In this document: one piece after another, positions 7,821-18,336 of the stretch
Layout: every line of letters begins with the position of its first letter
How positions within the stretch are numbered: the stretch's first letter is position 1
NCBI GenBank assembly: GCA_019058275.1
Contig: JAHLVW010000114.1
Location: forward strand, 1-18,336
Source of the DNA: Candidatus Heimdallarchaeota archaeon
GTDB taxonomy: Archaea; Asgardarchaeota; Heimdallarchaeia; JABLTI01
DNA length: 18,336 nucleotides
Reading direction: 5' to 3'
The notes under the pieces: generated by a model
What the model was told of the DNA's origin: nothing
What the model saw: the letters and a program-made list of their open reading frames with translations, nothing else
Databases searched by the model: none
Made by a program: the position numbers and the translations under genes

Positions 7821-9362
7821 TTAGATTCCTATCAAGGCTTTGGCAGCTTCACTTGCAAGATTAGAGAAGTACCCTGGAAAGATTCCTACTACAAACATTA
7901 AGAGAACTAATACCATGAGAGGTATTACAATCTCTACTGGAGTCTCTTTAATGTCTTCCAAATGTTCACCTGGTTCTTTGAACCAGAGTCTTTGTAAGAC
8001 AATTAGATAATAGACTACGCTGATAACGCTTGAGAGAAGGAATAAAGCTACTCCTACGAAATATTGCCAGTTTCCACTACCAACAGCAGCAACGACCATG
8101 TTAAATTTGCTCCAGAAACCTGGAAGTGGTGGAACACCTGCTAAACTCAGTAATGAAATTGTTAATGCTCCAATTGTCAATGGCATCTTTTTACCAATAC
8201 CCTTGAGACGATCTAGACCGCGATCATGGAATCGATATAGGATTGCTCCAGCGCATAAAAATGCAAGGCCTTTTCCAAGTGCATGTGTAAAGATATGGAA
8301 GTAACCACCTTGAATTCCTACTGCTGCAACATCTGTATCAATACCACTTAAGGACATAGATAATCCGAAGAGGATAAACCCAACGTTTAGAACGGTGGAG
8401 AATGCTAACAATCGTTTAATGTCGTTTTGTCGTAATGCTAGTAAGTTTCCAACAGCCATGGTTATAACTGATATCCAGAGCAAAGCTGAACCAATTGCTT
8501 CGGTTCCTGTTGAGCCAGAGAAGAATACTGTAAGCGTATTGGTCATTCCAAACATACCTGTCATAATCACAACACCAGACAACATCGCACTAATTCCACT
8601 TGGAGCCGCGGGATGTGCATCTGGAAGCCATGTGTGTAAAGGTACAATAGCAGCTTTCACACCAAAGCCTAAGATTAGACAGATAATGGTTATGACATAC
8701 ACTCCTGAAAATCCATTTGCTGTAATATCAGCAGTTAGGATTGTACCAATTTCTGCTATGTTTAGTGTTCCGGAAACACCATAAAGTAAGCTCATTCCAA
8801 AGAGTAGTAAAACGCTACCGAAAGCACTCATAAAGAGGTATTTAATACCTGCTTCAATAGGTTCTGGATCATCTTTTCTGAATGAAACTAAAATATAGCT
8901 TGCTATGCTCATTGTTTCCCAGAAGATGAACAGGGTAAGTAAATCACCAGCCATTACCACTCCTATCATTCCAGCGACAAGAAAAAGTAATAGTAGATAG
9001 TATTTATCAAGTCTGTCATCCTGATCCATGTATCGAATCGAGAAAATTGCCACTACTGAACCTAAAAGTACGAAGATAAGCATAAACCACCATGTGAGGC
9101 TATCTAATCTAAAGATAGTATAGACACCAGCAACATAGCTCTTATCACCTAACTTCAAGTAAAGGTCTTCAGCAGGGATAGATCCGACACTGCTGTAGAA
9201 GAATATGATTAATCCTAATACGACTAGGAGACAGACATTGGCAATTACTGCGTAAGCTAAGTTCCAACCCACTGTTTCTTTTCGTGCAAATCGTCCTAAT
9301 AATGCAATTAAGACAGCACCTGCAATGAGGATTATTATTGGGAGTAACCAAATAATGTTCAT
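7821..9362 (-). CDS. nuoN: Antiporter-like ion-translocating subunit N (NuoN/MrpD-like)
   Basis: 14-TM Proton_antipo_M pattern: FWE, EAGIKY, VKAAIVPLHTWLPDAH, DIKRLLAFS, GVPPLPGFWSKF. Start moved from TTG 9380 to ATG 9362, which has GGAGG at 9378-9374. Confidence 0.88.
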   Translation of the reverse strand: MNIIWLLPIIILIAGAVLIALLGRFARKETVGWNLAYAVIANVCLLVVLGLIIFFYSSVGSIPAEDLYLKLGDKSYVAGVYTIFRLDSLTWWFMLIFVLLGSVVAIFSIRYMDQDDRLDKYYLLLLFLVAGMIGVVMAGDLLTLFIFWETMSIASYILVSFRKDDPEPIEAGIKYLFMSAFGSVLLLFGMSLLYGVSGTLNIAEIGTILTADITANGFSGVYVITIICLILGFGVKAAIVPLHTWLPDAHPAAPSGISAMLSGVVIMTGMFGMTNTLTVFFSGSTGTEAIGSALLWISVITMAVGNLLALRQNDIKRLLAFSTVLNVGFILFGLSMSLSGIDTDVAAVGIQGGYFHIFTHALGKGLAFLCAGAILYRFHDRGLDRLKGIGKKMPLTIGALTISLLSLAGVPPLPGFWSKFNMVVAAVGSGNWQYFVGVALFLLSSVISVVYYLIVLQRLWFKEPGEHLEDIKETPVEIVIPLMVLVLLMFVVGIFPGYFSNLASEAAKALIGI

Positions 9363-9369
9363 TATTTTT

Positions 9370-10884
9370 TTAGCCTCCAAAGATTTTACTGACTGCTTCA
9401 GTCACGAAGACTAGGACACTCTTTGGGAAAAGTCCGATAACTAAGCTTAAGATTGCAAGGATAATTAATGGAATCCACATTGATGGACTTGGATCCTTGA
9501 CATCTTTGAATTCTTCTTTTTCTGGTCCTAGAAAGACGTTCTTCATAAAGAGAAGGACGTAAGTCGCTGTTAAGGCTGTTGAGAGTATAGCGAAAATCAC
9601 AGCAATAATTCCTAAAGTATTATTTGCTTGTAAACCGCCTTGGAAAATGATCCACTCAGACATAAAGCCTGCTAGTGGAGGTGTGCCGGCAAGACTTAAT
9701 GCAGCAATGATTGCTACAATCGTAGTTATAGGCATTCTACAAGCTAGACCTCCTAGCTTGTCTATTCTTCTACCTTTATGGTGACCAATTTGAGTCATAA
9801 GTATGCCAGCGACCATAAAGAGGGTCCCCTTAGCAAGGGCATGGCTCACGATATGGAATGTTGAACCAGTTGAACCGAAAAGTTCGAAGGTTCCTAAACC
9901 AAACAAGATGTAGCCCATCTGTGAGATAGATGAAAAAGCAAACAATCTTTTTGTGTCTTTTTGTGCTAAAGCCATAAGACCTCCGTAAAGCATAGTGAAT
10001 ACTGCGAAACCAATTAGCACCCAGCGCATCCAACCACCCATTCCTTCCTCGCCAAATATGCTTGTGCAAATTCTGAGGATACCGTAGGCAGCTGTTTCTA
10101 TCATGACACCACTTAGGATAGCACTAATTGGAGTTGGTGCTTCACCATGAGTGTCAGGTAACCAGGTGTGGATTGGGAAGATCGCCATTTTCACACTAAA
10201 ACCGAGCATCATTAGAATTGTTAATAGTCTAATGATATTTGCAGGGGCACTTATTCCTGTTGAAATTAATGTTGCAATGTTAAATGTTCCACCAAAAGCC
10301 CAGAGACCACCAATACCGATTAAAATTGCCATTGCACCTACATGTGTGAAGATGAAATATTTGAAAGCAATTTTCACTGCGTTTGGTTTTGATCCCCATT
10401 TAGCAATGATGAAATATGATGGAATTAACATTAATTCCCAGAATACATAGAATTGTGCTAAATCACCAGCAAGTACTACTCCAACCATTCCAGCAATATA
10501 AAGGACTAGTAGAGCGTAGTACCCACCTTGGCTTTCTTCTTTCTTCATGTATCCAAAGCTGAAAGATACTGCAGCTAATGATAGTATGAAGATGATTGCT
10601 GCCATTGTGAAACTTAAACCATCAGCTACTAATGAAAAGCCAATGTCAATTGTTCTTGAACCAATTGTGAAATTAATCCAATCCCAACCTTCGAAAACAT
10701 CGGAATCAGTACTTGTTACTCCAAGAACATCACCCATTGTTAAGGCAAAGAAGACAGTGGCTATAAGGACAGCTATTAATGCTGACCATTTTGCTGCTTT
10801 ATCATTCCACTTACCTAGAAGGAAAATAACTATTGGTGCTCCTAGCAGAATAGCTAAGGAAATAAATAGTGTAGATTCAAACAT
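9370..10884 (-). CDS. nuoM: Antiporter-like ion-translocating subunit M (NuoM-like)
   Basis: FYVFWELMLIPSY, VKMAIFPIHTWLPDTHGEAPT, and GFMSEW (TM12 Glu diagnostic of NuoM). AGGAGGA overlaps the nuoL stop. Confidence 0.9.
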   Translation of the reverse strand: MFESTLFISLAILLGAPIVIFLLGKWNDKAAKWSALIAVLIATVFFALTMGDVLGVTSTDSDVFEGWDWINFTIGSRTIDIGFSLVADGLSFTMAAIIFILSLAAVSFSFGYMKKEESQGGYYALLVLYIAGMVGVVLAGDLAQFYVFWELMLIPSYFIIAKWGSKPNAVKIAFKYFIFTHVGAMAILIGIGGLWAFGGTFNIATLISTGISAPANIIRLLTILMMLGFSVKMAIFPIHTWLPDTHGEAPTPISAILSGVMIETAAYGILRICTSIFGEEGMGGWMRWVLIGFAVFTMLYGGLMALAQKDTKRLFAFSSISQMGYILFGLGTFELFGSTGSTFHIVSHALAKGTLFMVAGILMTQIGHHKGRRIDKLGGLACRMPITTIVAIIAALSLAGTPPLAGFMSEWIIFQGGLQANNTLGIIAVIFAILSTALTATYVLLFMKNVFLGPEKEEFKDVKDPSPSMWIPLIILAILSLVIGLFPKSVLVFVTEAVSKIFGG

Positions 10885-10900: not shown

Positions 10901-13012
10901 CTAAAGTGTGAATAATAATATCGCCAGTAGGATTATTGCTCCTAATAGCATATAGATGAAATTCACTGAAAGAATTCCTGTATGAGTCTTTCTGAAAACT
11001 TCACCCGACTTCATGGTTCCAGAAGCGATGATATAGTTCGATCGGTCAATAATCTTCAGATCGAAGTATTCATAAGCTAGTTCTGAGAATCGCTTGAATT
11101 TACGTATGCACCAGTAGATTGCAGTATTCATATACCATCTCTTATAGAGGAAGGTGTTAATACTGCGTATGAATTTACTCTTTTCTTGGATTTTACCTGC
11201 ATCCCATTTTCTTCCAATATAGAAGAGGTATGCTGGTAAACCACCTGCCAACAAGATAACTAGAGTAATCCAGAATGTTGGAGGAGCAAATCCAAATGTA
11301 TGTCCTAAGAAATGACCATAGTCTATGGGTGATATTTCGGGATTTAAGATACTTGGGAACCACTCATTGTGAGACATGAAATTCTTCACAATTGGTGATA
11401 ACCAACCCAAAGCGATTGTTCCAACAGCTAGTATAACTAATGGAATCCACATTGTTGGACCAGTTTTGTGTAGATGACCGCCTGATTCTTTCTCAATATG
11501 CTTGACATTTTCTGTTTTCTCACCAAAGAATGTTTTTCCAATGAATCTGAGAGTATAGAAGATTGTCATTGCAGCTGAGATAGCAGCAACAGCGAAGAAT
11601 ATCCATCCGAAAGGATTGTGTTCATGTTGACCTAATTCCCAGCAAACGCCAAAGACTGATTCCTTACTGAAGAATCCACCCAATGGGGGTATTCCAGCAA
11701 GTGACAAACCACCTATAAGCATTGGCCAGAAGACTTTAGGCATATCTTTTCTCAGACCGCCCATTTCATCGACGTATTTGGAATGGATAGTGTGAATTAC
11801 AGCTCCCGCGGAAAGGAATAACAATCCTTTGAATACTGCGTGTGATAACATATGGAATGTACCAGCAAAGTAGCCAGTAACACCTAACTCACCAGTTAAC
11901 AAACCACCAGCACCAAGTCCTATAAACATGTAACCAAGTTGTGAGATGGTACTGAATGCTAGTATTTTCTTTAGTTCTGTAGCAGCCATACCCATTGTTG
12001 CTGCCATGAATGCTGTAAAAGCACCAATTGCTGCGACAAATAGGAAGTAAATTTGTAGTGAATCGTGTCCAAGTTGGTGATAACCGATATACCACATAGG
12101 ATATGTTCTAGCAACCATGTAGACACCTGCTTTAACCATTGCAGCTGCATGTATCAGAGCTGAAACAGTTGTGGGTCCGGCCATTGCTTCTGGAAGCCAG
12201 AATTGTAGTGGAAATTGTGCTGATTTACCGATAGGTCCACCAAAGATCAAAATAGCAGTTAAGACAAGGATTCTATCATTTGCTAAGTTATTCATCCAAG
12301 CTGTATTACTGAGGAGTGACATATAATTGAAAGTTCCAGCATAAGCAAAAACAATCATAATACCAGTCAACATCATTACATCACCAATTCTGGTGGTAAC
12401 GAATGCTTTTAGACCAGCATGTGAATTATAATCACCTTCTGTTTCTTCACGAATGGTGAATTCTCTTGGGTCTTGTTTTTCCTTCTTTGTGAAGAAATAC
12501 CCAATTAAGGCATATGAACAAAAACCAACTATTTCCCAACCAACAAATGATTGTAATAAATTGTTAGACATTACAAGGAAAACCATTCCTCCAATGAACA
12601 ATTGCATTAGGAACCAATATCGGTTAAGATGTTTGTCACCTTTCATGTAACCCACACCATAAATCATGATCATTGTTCCTACACCAGTAGCGAAGCAAGC
12701 GATCATAACTGTTAGTGGGTCAACTAGTACTCCGAATTCTACTCCGTATGTACCTCCACCAAGTCCGAAGAACCATTCAGTTTGGAATAATTCTACACCA
12801 GTGTCTCCATTGAAGACATCAACAACTAACAGGAGACTGAAAATGAATGCAATAAATGAAGTTGCTACTGCCATCCAATCACGGATGATATAGAGAACTT
12901 TCTTTATGCCTTCTGCTTTTAGTAAACCTGCGATCCAACCAATTACTGGAGTAATTAATGCACCAGCAAAAGGAATAGCCCAATTTAATATTGCAGCTGA
13001 TTCTAGTATCAT
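10901..13012 (-). CDS. nuoL: Antiporter-like ion-translocating subunit L (NuoL-like, with C-terminal transverse helix)
   Basis: GWEIVGFCSYALIG, KAFVTTRIGD, GKSAQFPL..WLPEAMAGPTTVSALIH, FFSKE. C-terminal KRWY...IID...HTG plus final TM, as in NuoL. Confidence 0.93.
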   Translation of the reverse strand: MILESAAILNWAIPFAGALITPVIGWIAGLLKAEGIKKVLYIIRDWMAVATSFIAFIFSLLLVVDVFNGDTGVELFQTEWFFGLGGGTYGVEFGVLVDPLTVMIACFATGVGTMIMIYGVGYMKGDKHLNRYWFLMQLFIGGMVFLVMSNNLLQSFVGWEIVGFCSYALIGYFFTKKEKQDPREFTIREETEGDYNSHAGLKAFVTTRIGDVMMLTGIMIVFAYAGTFNYMSLLSNTAWMNNLANDRILVLTAILIFGGPIGKSAQFPLQFWLPEAMAGPTTVSALIHAAAMVKAGVYMVARTYPMWYIGYHQLGHDSLQIYFLFVAAIGAFTAFMAATMGMAATELKKILAFSTISQLGYMFIGLGAGGLLTGELGVTGYFAGTFHMLSHAVFKGLLFLSAGAVIHTIHSKYVDEMGGLRKDMPKVFWPMLIGGLSLAGIPPLGGFFSKESVFGVCWELGQHEHNPFGWIFFAVAAISAAMTIFYTLRFIGKTFFGEKTENVKHIEKESGGHLHKTGPTMWIPLVILAVGTIALGWLSPIVKNFMSHNEWFPSILNPEISPIDYGHFLGHTFGFAPPTFWITLVILLAGGLPAYLFYIGRKWDAGKIQEKSKFIRSINTFLYKRWYMNTAIYWCIRKFKRFSELAYEYFDLKIIDRSNYIIASGTMKSGEVFRKTHTGILSVNFIYMLLGAIILLAILLFTL

Positions 13013-13025
13013 TGTTTTGTATCTC

Positions 13026-13361
13026 CTAATGTTTCAATTGTGATAGTCTTCTTGAGTTCAAGGTAGCGTGCATCCTATAGGCTTGAATTATCAAGGCTAA
13101 AGCAACACCTGCTATACATCCTCCAACACAAATGCTGATAATAACAACAGCATGTGGTAAAGGATCAACTAATCCACTTGCTCCAAAGATGTTTGAAAAT
13201 ACAATGAAGTTCAAGTGAGCTGCATCAAGCAGCAGTTCAATAGCAATCAAGAATTTAATCATGTTTTGTTTCGAGGTGAGACCATAGATGCCTATAGCAA
13301 GAAGCAAAATTGAGAAAATCAAAATGATGTATATATTATCAAATGGAATTTCAACTGCCAT
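13026..13361 (-). CDS. nuoK: Membrane subunit K (NuoK/MrpC/MbhG-like)
   Basis: 111 aa, 3 TM. IGIYGL..KQNMIK.LIAIELLL (NuoK) and DPLPHAVV (MrpC-type). Confidence 0.88.
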   Translation of the reverse strand: MAVEIPFDNIYIILIFSILLLAIGIYGLTSKQNMIKFLIAIELLLDAAHLNFIVFSNIFGASGLVDPLPHAVVIISICVGGCIAGVALALIIQAYRMHATLNSRRLSQLKH

Positions 13362-13363
13362 GT

Positions 13364-13780
13364 CTATCCTGCCTCCTCAAGTTCTTCCGCATCTTTTCGT
13401 TCAAGAATGACGAATTTGTCAGTCTCACACATTTCAGTACGGAATTCTGCGCATTGGTCTTCGATTCCTTTTACAACTGTAGAAGCTGCTTCAGAAGCGA
13501 CCAACAACATGATACCTACAATAATGATATCAACACCTCTGGCTTCCCAAAGAAGATATCCTACTGCTTCACCGATGTCCTTAAAGGTAACATCAGACCC
13601 TCCAACGAAGGTATAATCACCTCTAGAATTATCGTCAGTATCATCTAGTCGTAAACCTCGATCATTCGTTCCTTCTGGATCATAGAAATCCCATAATCCG
13701 AACATCATAAATCCAACGATACCCAGAACGAGGACTATGCTTGAAGCGAATATAAGATATTTTCTCATTTTCTTGTTCAT
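13364..13780 (-). CDS. Membrane subunit J2 (C-terminal half of split NuoJ / MbhE-like)
   Basis: 2 TM helices separated by an acidic loop. VGYLLWEARGVDIIIVGIMLLVA resembles NuoJ TM5 and the RGxD motif of MbhE/MrpA C-terminal domain. ATGA overlap with the upstream gene. Confidence 0.7.
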   Translation of the reverse strand: MNKKMRKYLIFASSIVLVLGIVGFMMFGLWDFYDPEGTNDRGLRLDDTDDNSRGDYTFVGGSDVTFKDIGEAVGYLLWEARGVDIIIVGIMLLVASEAASTVVKGIEDQCAEFRTEMCETDKFVILERKDAEELEEAG

Positions 13781-14091
13781 GCAGATGCTTCCTCCTTAGT
13801 ATCATCTTCTCCGAATAATCGATCTAGATCCTCTGCTGGTTCACCAGTTTCGAATCTCTCAGTTAGAGCAACTGTGGTGATAAGTAACACTGTAACAGCT
13901 CCTCCATAGATCATTAGCTGAAAGAGAGCAACCCACGGAGCATTTAGGATCCAGAAGACTCCAGCCAAGGCTATACTTAGAACAGCTAACGCAATTGCTG
14001 CATATATTAAATCTCGCAATTCAATTGCAAATATTGCTGCGATAACCACAATGACTAGTAAAATAATCAATAATATAGTATTGACATCCAT
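13777..14091 (-). CDS. nuoJ: Membrane subunit J1 (N-terminal half of split NuoJ)
   Basis: 3 TM. LNAPWVALFQLMIYGGAVTVLL matches NuoJ TM3 (QxxxYxGAxxVL). Confidence 0.88.
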   Translation of the reverse strand: MDVNTILLIILLVIVVIAAIFAIELRDLIYAAIALAVLSIALAGVFWILNAPWVALFQLMIYGGAVTVLLITTVALTERFETGEPAEDLDRLFGEDDTKEEASA

Positions 14092-14129: not shown

Positions 14130-14555
14130 CTAGCTTTCTTCCTCCTTTGGAGACTCTTCAGTAGCTTCTTCTTTTTTAGCTAATGAAGGTTCTTCTTTCG
14201 AGTAGATGATCATTTCATCTTGTTCGAAAGCTGATAGTTCAATGTAATCAGTAAGAACCAATGCATCGTATCTGCACGCGTCTTCACAGAGACCACAGAA
14301 AATGCATTCACCGAGGTTAATAACTGGTCTTTTACCTGTTTTAGTAATTTCTGAAGGAACCATTACAATTGCCAGAGGTGGACAAGCTCGTTCACAAGCT
14401 CTACAACCTGTGCACAGAGTAATGTCTAAATAGTGCGCACCTCTGAGTCCTATCGCAGGTTTAACTCCTGGTTCGAAAGGATAATCAATGGTCGCTTTTT
14501 TTCGTTTGAAAGCGTTTCTCAATGCTTCCCAAATAATTACTGCTGGTCTTGTCAT
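14130..14555 (-). CDS. nuoI: 2x[4Fe-4S] ferredoxin-like subunit I (NuoI/MbhN/HycF-like)
   Basis: ATIDYPFE, LRG.H, CTGCRACERACP and CIFCGLCEDAC motifs. AGGAGGA directly after the nuoH stop. Confidence 0.95.
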   Translation of the reverse strand: MTRPAVIIWEALRNAFKRKKATIDYPFEPGVKPAIGLRGAHYLDITLCTGCRACERACPPLAIVMVPSEITKTGKRPVINLGECIFCGLCEDACRYDALVLTDYIELSAFEQDEMIIYSKEEPSLAKKEEATEESPKEEES

Positions 14556-14573: not shown

Positions 14574-15695
14574 TTATGTTGCTCCTCCAGGGAACAATGC
14601 TTCAAATTTGCTCCACAGTGTATTATCTAACCATGGAACCCAGAAGAATGTAACAATCATTAATCCAAGACTTACAGGGATTAACCATTTCCATGAAAAT
14701 TCTAAGAATTGTTCAATTCGTAACCTTGCCATTAATGCTCTCATAGTCGAGAAAACAAGAACGATCAAGGTAGTCTTAATTGCAAACATTAAAGCATAAT
14801 ATGCTATTCGTATAGCACCTACCCACATGACACCAGCTGGTTGAGCTAAGGAAGCTCCTGTACCTAACCAGTCAGCAAAAGAGGGTATCCATATTTCAAC
14901 TCCTATTGGTCCACCTAAGAATAAGGCTGCACCAAGTCCAGCTGCGTACAACATTTGTAAGTCAGCAGACAATCTGAAGAATGCTAACTTCTTTCCAGAG
15001 TACTCAACTTCCCATCCACCGACAATTTCTGTTTCAGCTGTTGGTATATCAAATGGACTTCTTTCTAATTCTGCTTGAGATGAAAGCAAGAATATCAAGA
15101 AGAAGATTACCATTGGTAAGCTGAATAGAACTGGTCTGTGGTGTTCGAGTTGCCATGTAACTATTCCTGCAACAGACAAGCTTTCGGTTCGTAATGCTAC
15201 TGCAAACATTGCCATGAGAATTGGTATTTCATAGCTTAATAATTGTGATGCAACACGCATTGTTCCAGGCATCGCCAACTTATTGGCAGAGAACCATCCT
15301 GCAAGGTATATGACTAAAGCTAAGATTGTAGTTAAGAATGATAGCAATAATAAATCTGCTTCAAATGAGAGAATTCCACTTATGTTAATAATTGGAACAA
15401 ATAACAATGCTAGTAAAGGAATTGTTAATCCAATAACTGCAACGATTCTCATTCCCCATTTATCAGCAGCCTTTGGTTCGATATCTTCATTTGTCATTAG
15501 CTTGAGGAAATCTGCTAAAGGTTGTAAAATACCTTTAAAGCCTGTATGTAAAGGACCTATTCGGTCTTGCAGAGCAGCATAAAACTTCCGATCAATCCAT
15601 TCATCAAATAATGCTATTGAAATACAGAAGCCTATGCCAGGGAAGAAAAGTATCCCCAATATTAGTAATAACCATGGTGCCCATACTGCTAACAT
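14574..15695 (-). CDS. nuoH: Membrane anchor subunit H (NuoH/MbhM/HycD-like)
   Basis: DRKFYA.LQDRIGP, GILQPLADFLKL, QLLSYEIP, RSPFDIPTAETEIVGG..VEYSG. Start moved to ATG 15695 (TAATG overlap with the large-subunit stop, AGGTGG upstream). Confidence 0.94.
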   Translation of the reverse strand: MLAVWAPWLLLILGILFFPGIGFCISIALFDEWIDRKFYAALQDRIGPLHTGFKGILQPLADFLKLMTNEDIEPKAADKWGMRIVAVIGLTIPLLALLFVPIINISGILSFEADLLLLSFLTTILALVIYLAGWFSANKLAMPGTMRVASQLLSYEIPILMAMFAVALRTESLSVAGIVTWQLEHHRPVLFSLPMVIFFLIFLLSSQAELERSPFDIPTAETEIVGGWEVEYSGKKLAFFRLSADLQMLYAAGLGAALFLGGPIGVEIWIPSFADWLGTGASLAQPAGVMWVGAIRIAYYALMFAIKTTLIVLVFSTMRALMARLRIEQFLEFSWKWLIPVSLGLMIVTFFWVPWLDNTLWSKFEALFPGGAT

Positions 15696-16966
15696 TATTT
15701 TTTCCACCTTTTGTTTTTGGCATTCCATTCTTTGGAATATTTTCTTAGTTGGTCTAAATTCCATGTCCAAACTTTTGATTTCCTTCGGTCTTTGTTGATA
15801 ATAATTATCATTCTGTCTTCACAACTGAAGCAAGGATCAATTGAAGCTAATGATATTGTAGAATCAGCAATGTAGTCTCCTTTCAACATTTCACTAACTG
15901 AAAGTATGTTAGCTAATGTTGGAGTAGTAATTTTCAATCTGTATGGTTTGTTTGTATTATTTGACCAAAGGTAGTGAATCAGTTCACCACGAGGAGCCTC
16001 TGTTCTTGAGAGAATTTGAGCTTCTGGAATCTTCCTTGGTGGTTTAGCAAAAACAGGTCCATTTGGCATGTTCTCAACTAACCATATAATGTATTTACAA
16101 GCCTCAATAGTTTCAATCAAACGAACAACAACTCTTGAGAATACATCATTGGTATCATAAGTCACAACTTTGAAGATATCTCTTAAAGGCCCCTTATAAG
16201 CACTATAGGGATCATCATATCGAATATCAATAGCTAGTCCAGATGCACGTGCTGTAGGACCACAAGCGCAAAGTTCTTTGGCTTTGCTTGGTAAAAGGAT
16301 TCCAACTCCTTGTGTTCGTAAACGAACTGTATCTTCTTTAATACAGATATCAACATACCTTTCTAATCTCTCAATGGTTAGATTCATATACTTGACAGTT
16401 CTGTCCAATTGTTCTTGGGTCATGTTTCTTCGTATACCACCGATTTCATTGATACCATAGTTGACTCTGTTGCCAGTAATTTCTTCTAAAAGATCCATAG
16501 ATAATTCACGATCACGCCATGAAAGCATAAATAATGTATCAAAACCAATTTCATGGGCAGCTATGCCTAACCAAAGTATGTGGCTATGAATTCGTTCTAA
16601 TTCAAGTATAATTGTTCGTATGTATTGTGCTCTCTCTGGTACTTCAAAGTCATGTGAGCTAAGTATTCCTTCTACAGCATTTACCAATGAAATAGAATGT
16701 ACATGACTACAAATACCACAGACACGCTCAACCAAAGTGAGATTCTGGGAATAGGTTTTTGTTTCAGCTAATTTCTCAATTCCACGGTGAACATAACCAA
16801 TTCTTGGAGTAACATTAACAATGACTTCTCCTTCAACTTCTAATAAGAAATGTTCTGGTTCTTTCAACGCGGGATGTTGAGGACCAAGAGGAATTTCCAT
16901 AGTATTGGGTATGCAAGCAGCACATCCTGTTTTTGGGCTTGCGACTTTAATTTTCTTTTTCGCCAA
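15695..16966 (-). CDS. Group 4 [NiFe]-hydrogenase large subunit (NuoD homologue with intact Ni ligands)
   Basis: GPQHPALKEP, GYVHRGIEK, L1 ERVCGICSHVH (C83, C86), ELERIHSH, EAPRGE, L2 DPCFSCEDR (C379, C382) and a 38-aa tail. TTG start with GAGGTGA overlapping the nuoC stop. Confidence 0.95.
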   Translation of the reverse strand: MAKKKIKVASPKTGCAACIPNTMEIPLGPQHPALKEPEHFLLEVEGEVIVNVTPRIGYVHRGIEKLAETKTYSQNLTLVERVCGICSHVHSISLVNAVEGILSSHDFEVPERAQYIRTIILELERIHSHILWLGIAAHEIGFDTLFMLSWRDRELSMDLLEEITGNRVNYGINEIGGIRRNMTQEQLDRTVKYMNLTIERLERYVDICIKEDTVRLRTQGVGILLPSKAKELCACGPTARASGLAIDIRYDDPYSAYKGPLRDIFKVVTYDTNDVFSRVVVRLIETIEACKYIIWLVENMPNGPVFAKPPRKIPEAQILSRTEAPRGELIHYLWSNNTNKPYRLKITTPTLANILSVSEMLKGDYIADSTISLASIDPCFSCEDRMIIIINKDRRKSKVWTWNLDQLRKYSKEWNAKNKRWKK

Positions 16967-16975
16967 TCTATCACC

Positions 16976-17491
16976 TCATTTTTTAGCCTTTTTTGCAGCT
17001 TCTTCCTTTTGTATTTCCAACAGGAAGTCTTTACGCAATGGGTGTACCCCATCTGGAAAATCTTCTGGTAAGATAAGTCGACTAAGGTCTGGATGTCCTT
17101 CAAAAAAGATACCCAGTAAATCATGTGTTTCACGTTCGAAAAATTGCACCCCTGGAATTACCTCTGAAGATGAGGTTAGTTTAGGGTTATTATAATCAGT
17201 ACAATCCACATGTAAATTCATGGTTACTGCAGTTTCCCCGTTATGAGGTGGTATAATATCAAAATGATATACACAAGCTATTACTTTTTCTGGTGTATCA
17301 ACACCTGAAATAGCGATCATATGCCAAGCATTCCATTTTTCCTTTGCAAAAACAAATACCTCTAATTGGTCGGGGTCAGCAACTTTGACATAAATTCTCC
17401 TTAGGGCTCGTATTTCTGCCTCGAGAATCTTATCTCCAAATTGACTTTTCAATGCGTCAATTACCTTTTGTTCTCTTTTCGTATCACTCAT
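16976..17491 (-). CDS. nuoC: Subunit C (NuoC/MbhK-like)
   Basis: ISGVD, YHF, and [43 protein letters not shown] overlap with the upstream gene, AGGAGG upstream. Confidence 0.94.
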
Positions 17492-17994
17492 TATATAGCA
17501 AAAGCCTCCTTATCTTTTATATGACTCTTTAAGTCAATCTCCTTCGGAGTTATAACAGGGGTTTCTTTACCTTGTAATTTTGCTAACAATTGAGCAATGC
17601 CAAAAATAATCGCCTCTGGTTTAGGAGGACATCCAGGAATATAGATATCTACGGGGATAACTGTATCAATTCCCAAACAAGGAATGTAGCTGTGTCTAAA
17701 AATACCACCACTACAAGCGCAAGCGCCAATAGCAATAACAAATTTAGGATCTGGTGTCTGTTCCCATAATAGCTTAAGACGATTTTTCATTTGTTGGGTT
17801 GCGGGTCCTGTCACTACTAAGACATCTGCATGTCTAGGGCTACCTTGAATAAGTATTCCAAGGCGTTCCACATCGTATCTAGGAGTTAGAACATCGACTA
17901 CTTCGATATCACATCCGTTACAACCTCCTGTATTGACATGAATTATCCAGGGTGACTTCACTCGCGCCCAATTGACTATCTTCTTCAGAACCAT
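17491..17994 (-). CDS. Group 4 hydrogenase small subunit (NuoB homologue, one [4Fe-4S])
   Basis: [50 protein letters not shown] 17994 preferred over GTG 18006 because AAGGTGA lies 8 nt upstream. Confidence 0.94.
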
Positions 17995-18002
17995 AGTAAT
18001 TT

Positions 18003-18336
18003 TCACCTTCTGAGTGATATCACTCCTAAAAGTCCAATACCAGCGAATATTGCTGCTACTGCACTAAATTCATACCCTTGCTTAAGGGTCACCATAGCGG
18101 TTGCTAGGACGAATGCTAATATATCAAAAATAGTGAAATAGATAGCAAAGATGAATACATTGGGATAGAATTGTGATTGACCACCTTCCATGTCTTCTCC
18201 GCATGCATAGCTTTTCAGCTTTTCTGGTGGAGGGGTTCGCGGGGCCAACCGGCGACCTAAAATGTATAATAGGAGTACGGCAACCAGGATTACGACTAAA
18301 GCAAGCCAAAGGTTATACGGTTCAGGTGCTCGGGCC
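18003..18336 (-). CDS. nuoA: Membrane subunit A (NuoA-like), 5' end outside window
   Basis: Frame stays open to the window edge: ARAPEPYNLWLALVVILVAVLLLYILGRRLAPRTPPPEKLKSYACGED...FAIYFTIFDIL...TM3. This gives 3 TM helices, a KxxxYxCG loop and the FxIFD motif. Confidence 0.88.
   Translation of the reverse strand, partial: ARAPEPYNLWLALVVILVAVLLLYILGRRLAPRTPPPEKLKSYACGEDMEGGQSQFYPNVFIFAIYFTIFDILAFVLATAMVTLKQGYEFSAVAAIFAGIGLLGVISLRR

Follow-up and report, generated by a model that had tools for sequence, protein, structure and literature searches.

In an 18,336-nucleotide stretch from Candidatus Heimdallarchaeota archaeon (contig JAHLVW010000114.1 of assembly GCA_019058275.1; the whole stretch is called the window below), a minus-strand operon for a putative complex-I-shaped [NiFe]-hydrogenase encodes two antiporter-like subunits, M and N, that both lack the central lysine of transmembrane helix 8 (TM8); a glutamate stands in its place in M and a methionine in N. 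We favour, with moderate confidence, the view that these losses go back far in two archaeal paralogue families and have been maintained by selection, and that the central relay of the charged axis may lie at TM11 in these families. The two residues are:

10096-10098, minus strand: Glu263 of M (GAA), in the TM8 central-lysine column (E. coli NuoM K265), located by HMMER, MAFFT and profile alignment
8562-8564, minus strand: Met273 of N (ATG), in the TM8 central-lysine column (E. coli NuoN K247), located by MAFFT and profile alignment

Glu263 is part of M, the translation of 9370-10884 on the minus strand (LSGVMIETAAYGILR), and Met273 is part of N, the translation of 7821-9380 on the same strand (LSGVVIMTGMFG). 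When M is aligned to solved chains by HMMER, Glu263 falls opposite the TM8 lysine of MbhH (6cfw_H), MrpA (7qru_A), MbsH' (6u8y_X) and E. coli NuoM (K265), and both MAFFT with the E. coli NuoL, NuoM and NuoN sequences (taken from NC_000913.3) and a profile alignment covering some 700 antiporter-like subunits put K265 of E. coli NuoM, K247 of E. coli NuoN, Glu263 and Met273 in one shared column. In one MAFFT run N was offset by one residue, with Ile in place of Met; the register does not matter, since neither M nor N has a Lys or Arg within two residues on either side of the column, and an alternative TM8 lysine in a different register was rejected for the same reason. An initial annotation, made from the letters of the window, had placed Glu and Met at this column, and the alignments agree with it.

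The rest of the charged axis is present in both subunits:

10435-10437, minus strand: TM5 Glu150 of M
10189-10191, minus strand: TM7 Lys232 of M
9829-9855, minus strand: TM11 H344-x3-H348-x3-K352 of M (FHIVSHALAKG), an array of NuoL/MrpD type that does not vary across 18 diverse M-type homologues
9655-9657, minus strand: TM12 Glu410 of M
8916-8918, minus strand: TM5 Glu155 of N
8655-8657, minus strand: TM7 Lys242 of N
8271-8297, minus strand: TM11 H362-x3-H366-x3-K370 of N (FHIFTHALGKG)
8106-8108, minus strand: TM12 Lys425 of N

M thus has the TM5 Glu, TM7 Lys and TM12 Glu of canonical NuoM and lacks its TM8 lysine (K265), just as N lacks that of canonical NuoN (K247). The set that defines MrpD/MbhH-like subunits (Proton_antipo_M fold, TM5 Glu, TM7 Lys, TM11 Lys, TM12 Lys) is found in M and N alike, except that TM12 of M carries Glu, and neither has the TM8 lysine on the pi-bulge. 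It had been noted at the outset that the TM5, TM7 and TM12 residues are intact in both (E150, K232 and E410 in M; E155, K242 and K425 in N) and that both have a NuoL/MrpD-like TM11 lysine (K352 in HALAKG, K370 in HALGKG), and each of these assignments held. An AlphaFold2 model of M (mean predicted local distance difference test score, pLDDT, 85.4) adopts the standard fold; TM7 is interrupted after K232 and TM12 before E410. The template-modelling (TM) scores of this model, 0.85-0.91 against NuoM, MrpD and MbhH chains, come from a fold search and speak to the generic fold only.

Within the Heimdall genus a complete axis is found only in the third antiporter-like subunit, L, which has E160, K263, TM8 His288 and Lys294 (MrpA-like, ALIHAAAMVKAG), TM11 H387, H391 and K395, and TM12 K450, as well as a C-terminal extension that aligns to the lateral-helix region of E. 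coli NuoL. Subunit K keeps its TM2 Glu (AIELLL) and has no TM3 Glu at the position of E. coli NuoK E72 (GGCIAGVA vs AAAEASIG), so the proximal charged axis also departs from complex I. The initial annotation had called the charged axis rewired, which is a fair description: the central axis of M and N differs from that of canonical NuoM and NuoN, the difference is conserved, and the TM11 lysine could take over.

Both subunits belong outside the canonical families. M scores 333.1 bits against the NCBIfam model TIGR01972 (NDH_I_M), above the cut-off of 263.8, while N reaches no NCBIfam cut-off: it scores 266.8 against TIGR01770 (NDH_I_N, NuoN; cut-off 332.6), and its best model is the MrpD/MbhH-like PRK08376 (314.8; cut-off 662). 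The closest solved relative of each is MbhH (6cfw_H; E 8e-73 for N). In a FastTree phylogeny of 151 antiporter-like subunits, M falls into a 45-row clade (support 83) beside canonical NuoM, which we call M-prime; every member has the TM11 lysine, all but two have the TM12 Glu, and the TM8 residue is E, K or G (N in one member). In the canonical M clade (16 rows, including E. coli NuoM) the TM8 lysine is present and the TM11 lysine is absent. N clusters with other MrpD/MbhH-like subunits outside canonical NuoN, and we refer to it as N-prime. Across the two paralogue families the TM8 column takes the states K, E, G, A, Q, N, S, M and V, and the TM11 His-x3-His-x3-Lys is essentially invariant. 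The initial annotation had allowed that such substitutions might turn out to be common in ordinary archaeal NuoM and NuoN; they are common in the M-prime and N-prime families, while canonical NuoM and NuoN keep the lysine. Among the homologues of M there are also apparently fused antiporter-like subunits, proteins of ~1250-1330 residues (P0125-P0127, P0133-P0142) with two to four separate matches to M each.

An orthologue alignment, proposed in the initial annotation as a check, shows that Glu and Met are conserved at this column and that the orthologues are without Lys: in seven genomes of the same genus or family M carries Glu (Gln in two) and N carries Met, and all seven keep the Ni-Fe cysteines of subunit D. 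At this codon of M the orthologues use GAA or GAG and differ synonymously in the codons beside it (ATA/ATC/ATT), and Lys (AAA), although one transition away from GAA, was not seen among the orthologues. Further afield we surveyed the closest database homologues, 120 for M and 121 for N. Almost all matches to M down to about 45% identity carry Glu, under the source labels Heimdall-, Odin-, Baldr-, Thor-, Hermod- and Hodarchaeota; several have Ala (one labelled Promethearchaeota), one has Gly, and Lys (MIKCGAY) is found in a group at ~47% identity whose named members are Bathyarchaeota. Of the N homologues, 48 carry Met at TM8. Another 37 combine a TM8 Lys with Thr in place of the TM7 lysine, both lysines are present in 28, and the TM8 residue of the remaining eight is Glu, Ser, Val or Ala; none of the 121 lacks both the TM7 and the TM8 lysine, which suggests that one lysine in the N-terminal half-channel is enough. 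The Met carriers include the Heimdall genus (68-100% identity) and homologues at 43-49% identity, some labelled Thorarchaeota or Promethearchaeota, and Met was also found in operons of two further Asgard genus groups and of a Promethearchaeota metagenome-assembled genome (MAG). Thr in place of the "absolutely conserved" TM7 lysine, combined with a TM8 Lys, was seen in the N-type subunits of two Asgard genomes of 1.3-1.4 Mb, probably Odinarchaeia (L128, L129), and of a member of the Nitrososphaerales (L075).

The Glu and Met states thus appear to be selected. The source genome is a 4.1 Mb MAG, 92.8% complete, and its estimated contamination of 6.8% is the one point in favour of a sequencing or assembly error or a decaying gene; we regard such an explanation as practically negligible, because both frames are intact and more than 25 independent assemblies show the same residues, with codons that differ synonymously. 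A private variant was rejected on the same grounds of orthologue conservation with synonymous changes.

What the substitutions may mean for the axis has to be judged against work on canonical subunits. According to Steiner and Sazanov (PMC7419157), LysTM8 sits on the TM8 pi-bulge, and no other TM8 residue of MrpD-like subunits can be protonated; D333 and K337 of MrpD connect LysTM8 to LysTM12, and in NuoL/ND5 a TM8 His "presumably replaces" LysTM8. The E. coli NuoN mutant K247A retains ~8-35% of wild-type oxidase and pumping activity, depending on the assay (PMC13073174). This loss of most activity indicates that the TM8 lysine matters in a canonical background, which has no TM11 lysine, and it is what makes the natural Lys-less forms informative.

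On our preferred reading, M and N would be two MrpD/MbhH-like subunits of a Heimdallarchaeial complex-I-shaped [NiFe]-hydrogenase in which the TM11 lysine (K352 in M, K370 in N), together with the two histidines of the array, links the pair formed by TM7 Lys and TM5 Glu to the Glu or Lys of TM12. Such a relay could work as in NuoL/ND5, whose TM8 lysine column is also non-Lys, and M and N would still pass charge or protons along the axis. Glu263 might add a titratable group or form an ion pair with K352, Met273 might be a neutral, lysine-shaped filler, and L, with its full MrpA-like residue set, would be the best candidate for outward proton exit.

We compared TM8 and TM11 in 272 subunits, non-redundant at 70% identity, a sample biased towards relatives of M and N. 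Where the TM11 lysine is present (n=239), 136 subunits have a lysine near TM8 and 103 have none; where it is absent (n=33), 30 have a lysine near TM8 and three do not, and these three are degenerate, with several axis residues missing. This is the pattern expected if a TM11 lysine makes the TM8 lysine dispensable. On the tree there are at least 27 changes between Lys and other residues at TM8 and at least nine changes of the TM11 lysine.

Several points weigh against this relay. The table is a raw contingency among related sequences with few subunits that lack the TM11 lysine (33), and an independent-pairs test found 8-9 pairs with a median p = 1; given these pairs and the bias of the sample, compensation by TM11 is something we infer. 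A screen of the positions that separate Glu-type from Lys- or Gly-type M returned only I256/M and T264/I, so that no compensating charge change was seen between Glu-type and Lys-type M and charge compensation elsewhere in M was rejected; the swap of Lys for Glu shifts the net charge by two with no visible balance. The strong conservation of Glu and Met within Asgard archaea indicates that the TM8 position is not simply free to vary there, and that M and N are still functional is our assumption.

On a different account, M and N are decommissioned pumps that neither take up nor release ions and serve as an electrostatic or lateral conduit from the redox module to L as the sole, "ND5-only" pump. 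LysTM8 has been suggested to make the connection with the cytoplasmic side along TM8 (PMC7419157), the E. coli K247A mutant is nearly dead, Met cannot be protonated, K is without its TM3 Glu and only L has the full MrpA-like set. The TM5 Glu, TM7 Lys, TM11 His-His-Lys and TM12 Lys or Glu are, however, strictly conserved in M and N, which argues for continued proton chemistry in both, and Glu263 is titratable; we therefore think this account unlikely. A lower pumping stoichiometry or a purely lateral transfer, both raised by the initial annotation, may apply. Equally doubtful to us as the decommissioned pumps is a broader form of that account, in which L would be the only complete pump of the Asgard complex-I-shaped hydrogenases in general and M and N would be transmitters selected not to pump, their TM11 lysines passing on the signal in a "single-exit" machine. 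The initial annotation had also raised a Na+ route. Glu263, a buried carboxylate beside Thr264 (IET), could in principle ligate a cation and make M the Na+ limb of an Mrp-like antiporter module, and we also count in favour of this that no MrpE/F/G-type Na+ module is visible in the operon. Glu is nevertheless replaced by Gln in two species of the same genus, by Ala in homologues (one labelled Promethearchaeota), by Gly in Nitrososphaeria and by Lys in Bathyarchaeia, with the surrounding motif otherwise unchanged in all these forms; we found no known Na+-site motif, and the screen of M positions gave no further co-varying acidic ligands. Such replacements in close relatives leave the Na+ route unsupported, and we consider it very improbable.

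The initial annotation had suggested an energetic reading, namely that the lysines were lost so that fewer ions move per two electrons, in keeping with the small free energy of electron transfer from ferredoxin to protons. The operon does look like that of a hydrogenase. D has all four Ni-Fe cysteines, in the L1 RxCGxC motif (C83 and C86 in RVCGIC) and the L2 DPCxxCxxR/H motif (C379 and C382 in DPCFSCEDR), conserved in eight orthologues, and by these motifs D is a group-4 [NiFe]-hydrogenase-type catalytic subunit; the quinone- or phenazine-reducing D of complex I and Fpo has no Ni-Fe ligands, which sets D apart from it. B carries a hydrogenase-type GGCNGC motif in place of the tandem CC of the complex I B subunit, the operon holds no NuoEFG genes, and a search for HypD and HycI-type maturation genes found HypD (460 bits) and three HycI-family proteases in the genome. 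Together with the restriction of the complete axis to L in the Heimdall genus, all this is in line with energetic tuning, and on general thermodynamic grounds the transfer of four ions per two electrons would exceed the energy of the ferredoxin/H2 couple under most conditions.

The TM8 state, however, can be paired with the Ni-Fe motifs of D where both lie on one locus (in many Asgard genomes L-M-N lie apart from D), and the pairs are as follows:

D with Ni-Fe cysteines, Heimdall genus: M Glu or Gln, N Met
D with Ni-Fe cysteines, Baldrarchaeota and Odinarchaeota: M Glu, N Lys
D with Ni-Fe cysteines, Bathyarchaeota (loci L046 and L049): M Lys, N Lys; L degenerate, N without the TM7 Lys
D with Ni-Fe cysteines, locus L067: M Gly, N Glu
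D without Ni-Fe cysteines, Geothermarchaeum (locus L052): M Glu, N Lys
D without Ni-Fe cysteines, Ca. H. aukensis (locus L056), Thorarchaeota (loci L057 and L064) and similar four-subunit operons in other archaeal MAGs: M' Glu, followed by L and M (Lys); N Lys
D without Ni-Fe cysteines, Nitrososphaeria: M Gly, N Lys

As far as these sequences go, the TM8 state does not track hydrogenase chemistry, and its independence of that chemistry removes the main support for energetic tuning. M has Glu in operons without Ni-Fe ligands, some of them with four antiporter-like subunits (L052, L056-L064), and Gly in aerobic ammonia oxidisers, contrary to the proposed link with the ferredoxin/H2 couple, which is further contradicted by the lysines in both M and N of Ni-Fe-bearing Bathyarchaeia (L046, L049). 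The Ni-Fe operons of Baldr- and Odinarchaeota keep Lys in N, and a tally of signatures gives similar numbers of intact-axis subunits per complex in operons with and without the Ni-Fe ligands. Energetic tuning is therefore improbable in our view, and the substitutions in the membrane arm look like an old trait of the family or lineage rather than one adapted specifically to the ferredoxin/H2 couple.

Other lineages show other departures. Two Nitrosopumilaceae genomes have only three antiporter-like genes each, so that the Gly-bearing M is the sole NuoM of these organisms. In four Bathyarchaeota loci (L046, L049, L051, L053) L is degenerate, with no TM8 His or Lys, with L/I-D-S in place of H-H-K in TM11 and with T, S or C in TM12, and the TM7 lysine of the N-type subunit is replaced by Val or Gln; the parts of the axis that were lost thus differ between lineages.

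Every current model of proton pumping in complex I and Mrp is built around the TM8 lysine. It is missing from large archaeal clades in which selection maintains another residue, Glu or Met in the Asgard hydrogenase type and Gly in the complex I of ammonia oxidisers. These clades serve as natural experiments that can show which residues of the axis are needed, and the TM11 His-His-Lys array emerges from them as a possible alternative relay. Should the broader, single-exit reading above hold, which we think doubtful, the central TM8 lysine would also be dispensable wherever a TM11 lysine exists, across much of the archaeal relatives of complex I, and the set of essential residues would have to be revised. 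The pattern also yields concrete and cheap designs for E. coli mutants, in which the TM8 residue is swapped with or without a TM11 lysine. We would caution that TM8 substitutions should not be taken as a sign of metabolic tuning, and that models of Asgard bioenergetics should not derive the pumping stoichiometry from them.

The operon runs from 18335 down to 7821 on the minus strand in the gene order A-B-C-D-H-I-J-K-L-M-N and contains the complete 11-subunit core set of complex I and Fpo, including a NuoL with lateral helix:

18003-18335, minus strand: A subunit, at the contig end; the A of an orthologous locus is also 110 residues long
17491-18006, minus strand: B subunit
16976-17491, minus strand: C subunit
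15695-16966, minus strand: D subunit, with four Ni-Fe cysteines and a basic tail
about 14574-15695, minus strand: H subunit
14130-14555, minus strand: I subunit
13777-14091, minus strand: J1 subunit
13364-13780, minus strand: open reading frame without a Pfam match, possibly J2
13026-13361, minus strand: K subunit, TM2 Glu kept, TM3 Glu missing
10901-13012, minus strand: L subunit, 703 residues (TIGR01974, 463.6 against a cut-off of 407.5)
9370-10884, minus strand: M subunit, 504 residues (PF00361 and PF00662, TIGR01972)
7821-9380, minus strand: N subunit, 519 residues from a TTG start (PF00361 and PF00662)

The longest reading frame for H (14574-15770, minus strand, from a TTG at 15770) overlaps D by 76 bases; translation of H probably begins at the ATG at 15695 (MLAVWAPW...), a codon that overlaps the stop codon of D. 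The C-terminus of D (15695-15808, minus strand) is a basic tail of ~37 residues after DPCFSCEDR that is conserved throughout the genus (...INKDRRK...LRKY...W...WKK), to a higher degree than one would expect if maturation simply removed this peptide. At the orthologous locus of HM7_B34 (Heimdallarchaeota), 220 bp upstream of nuoA and on the same strand, a gene (L028:3517-4800, plus strand) encodes a 427-residue protein with a 2x[4Fe-4S] ferredoxin domain at residues 285-345, a candidate electron-input partner; the equivalent region of the window lies beyond the contig end. Elsewhere in the source genome, contig C30 carries a stand-alone pair of a NuoD-like gene (375 residues, Complex1_49kDa) and a NuoH-like gene (351 residues), apart from the main operon (L126:7879-10143). 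Contig C84 carries, at ~27836-32749 (L125:6837-11504), a second and very divergent membrane-arm-like cluster, in which a NuoK-like gene stands with two proteins that match Proton_antipo_M weakly (531 and 638 residues, E about 1e-8 to M); the cluster adjoins reading frames of 906 and 1635 residues and has no redox genes nearby.

The kind of complex encoded here has already been described, while the residue pattern appears not to have been. The closest homologues are labelled Heimdallarchaeota or Asgard group by their sources, and the class includes Ca. Heimdallarchaeum aukensis; complex-I-like [NiFe]-hydrogenases of Heimdallarchaeia (groups 4j/4m/4p/4q) were reported by Appler et al. (bioRxiv 10.1101/2024.07.04.601786). 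Taken as a whole, that set shares with the window operon a NuoBCDI peripheral arm without NuoEFG, the Ni-Fe motifs in D, a complex-I-like membrane arm and the Heimdallarchaeial origin. The preprint does not discuss axis residues, and the word "lysine" does not occur in its text; a literature search for earlier mention of the TM8 substitution found nothing relevant.

Among better-known systems, NuoM and NuoN of E. coli and T. thermophilus (ND4 and ND2) share with M and N the 14-helix antiporter-like fold, the TM5 Glu, the TM7 Lys, the TM12 Glu (M) or Lys (N) and the order L-M-N; they differ in having the TM8 lysine (K265, K247) and a single TM11 His without a TM11 lysine, where M and N have Glu or Met in TM8 and H-H-K in TM11. 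NuoL/ND5 resembles M and N in the TM11 HxxxHxxxK between the TM7 and TM12 lysines and in a non-Lys residue at the K265 column (Thr in E. coli NuoL), but M and N have neither its lateral helix nor its TM8 His on the pi-bulge. MbhH of the Pyrococcus furiosus MBH (6CFW) and MrpD and MrpA (6Z16, 7QRU), which belong to ferredoxin-hydrogenase or antiporter machines, have the TM11 lysine as well, and unlike M and N they all keep the TM8 lysine (PMC7419157); MBH furthermore combines one such subunit with an Mrp Na+ module, which is not seen in the window operon. The NuoM of Nitrosopumilaceae and the extra M-type subunit of four-antiporter archaeal complexes come from the same M clade, with the invariant TM11 H-H-K (the first His often Met), the TM12 Glu and no TM8 lysine; they differ from M in their TM8 Gly (Glu in the Asgard four-subunit operons) and in a D without the Ni-Fe cysteines.

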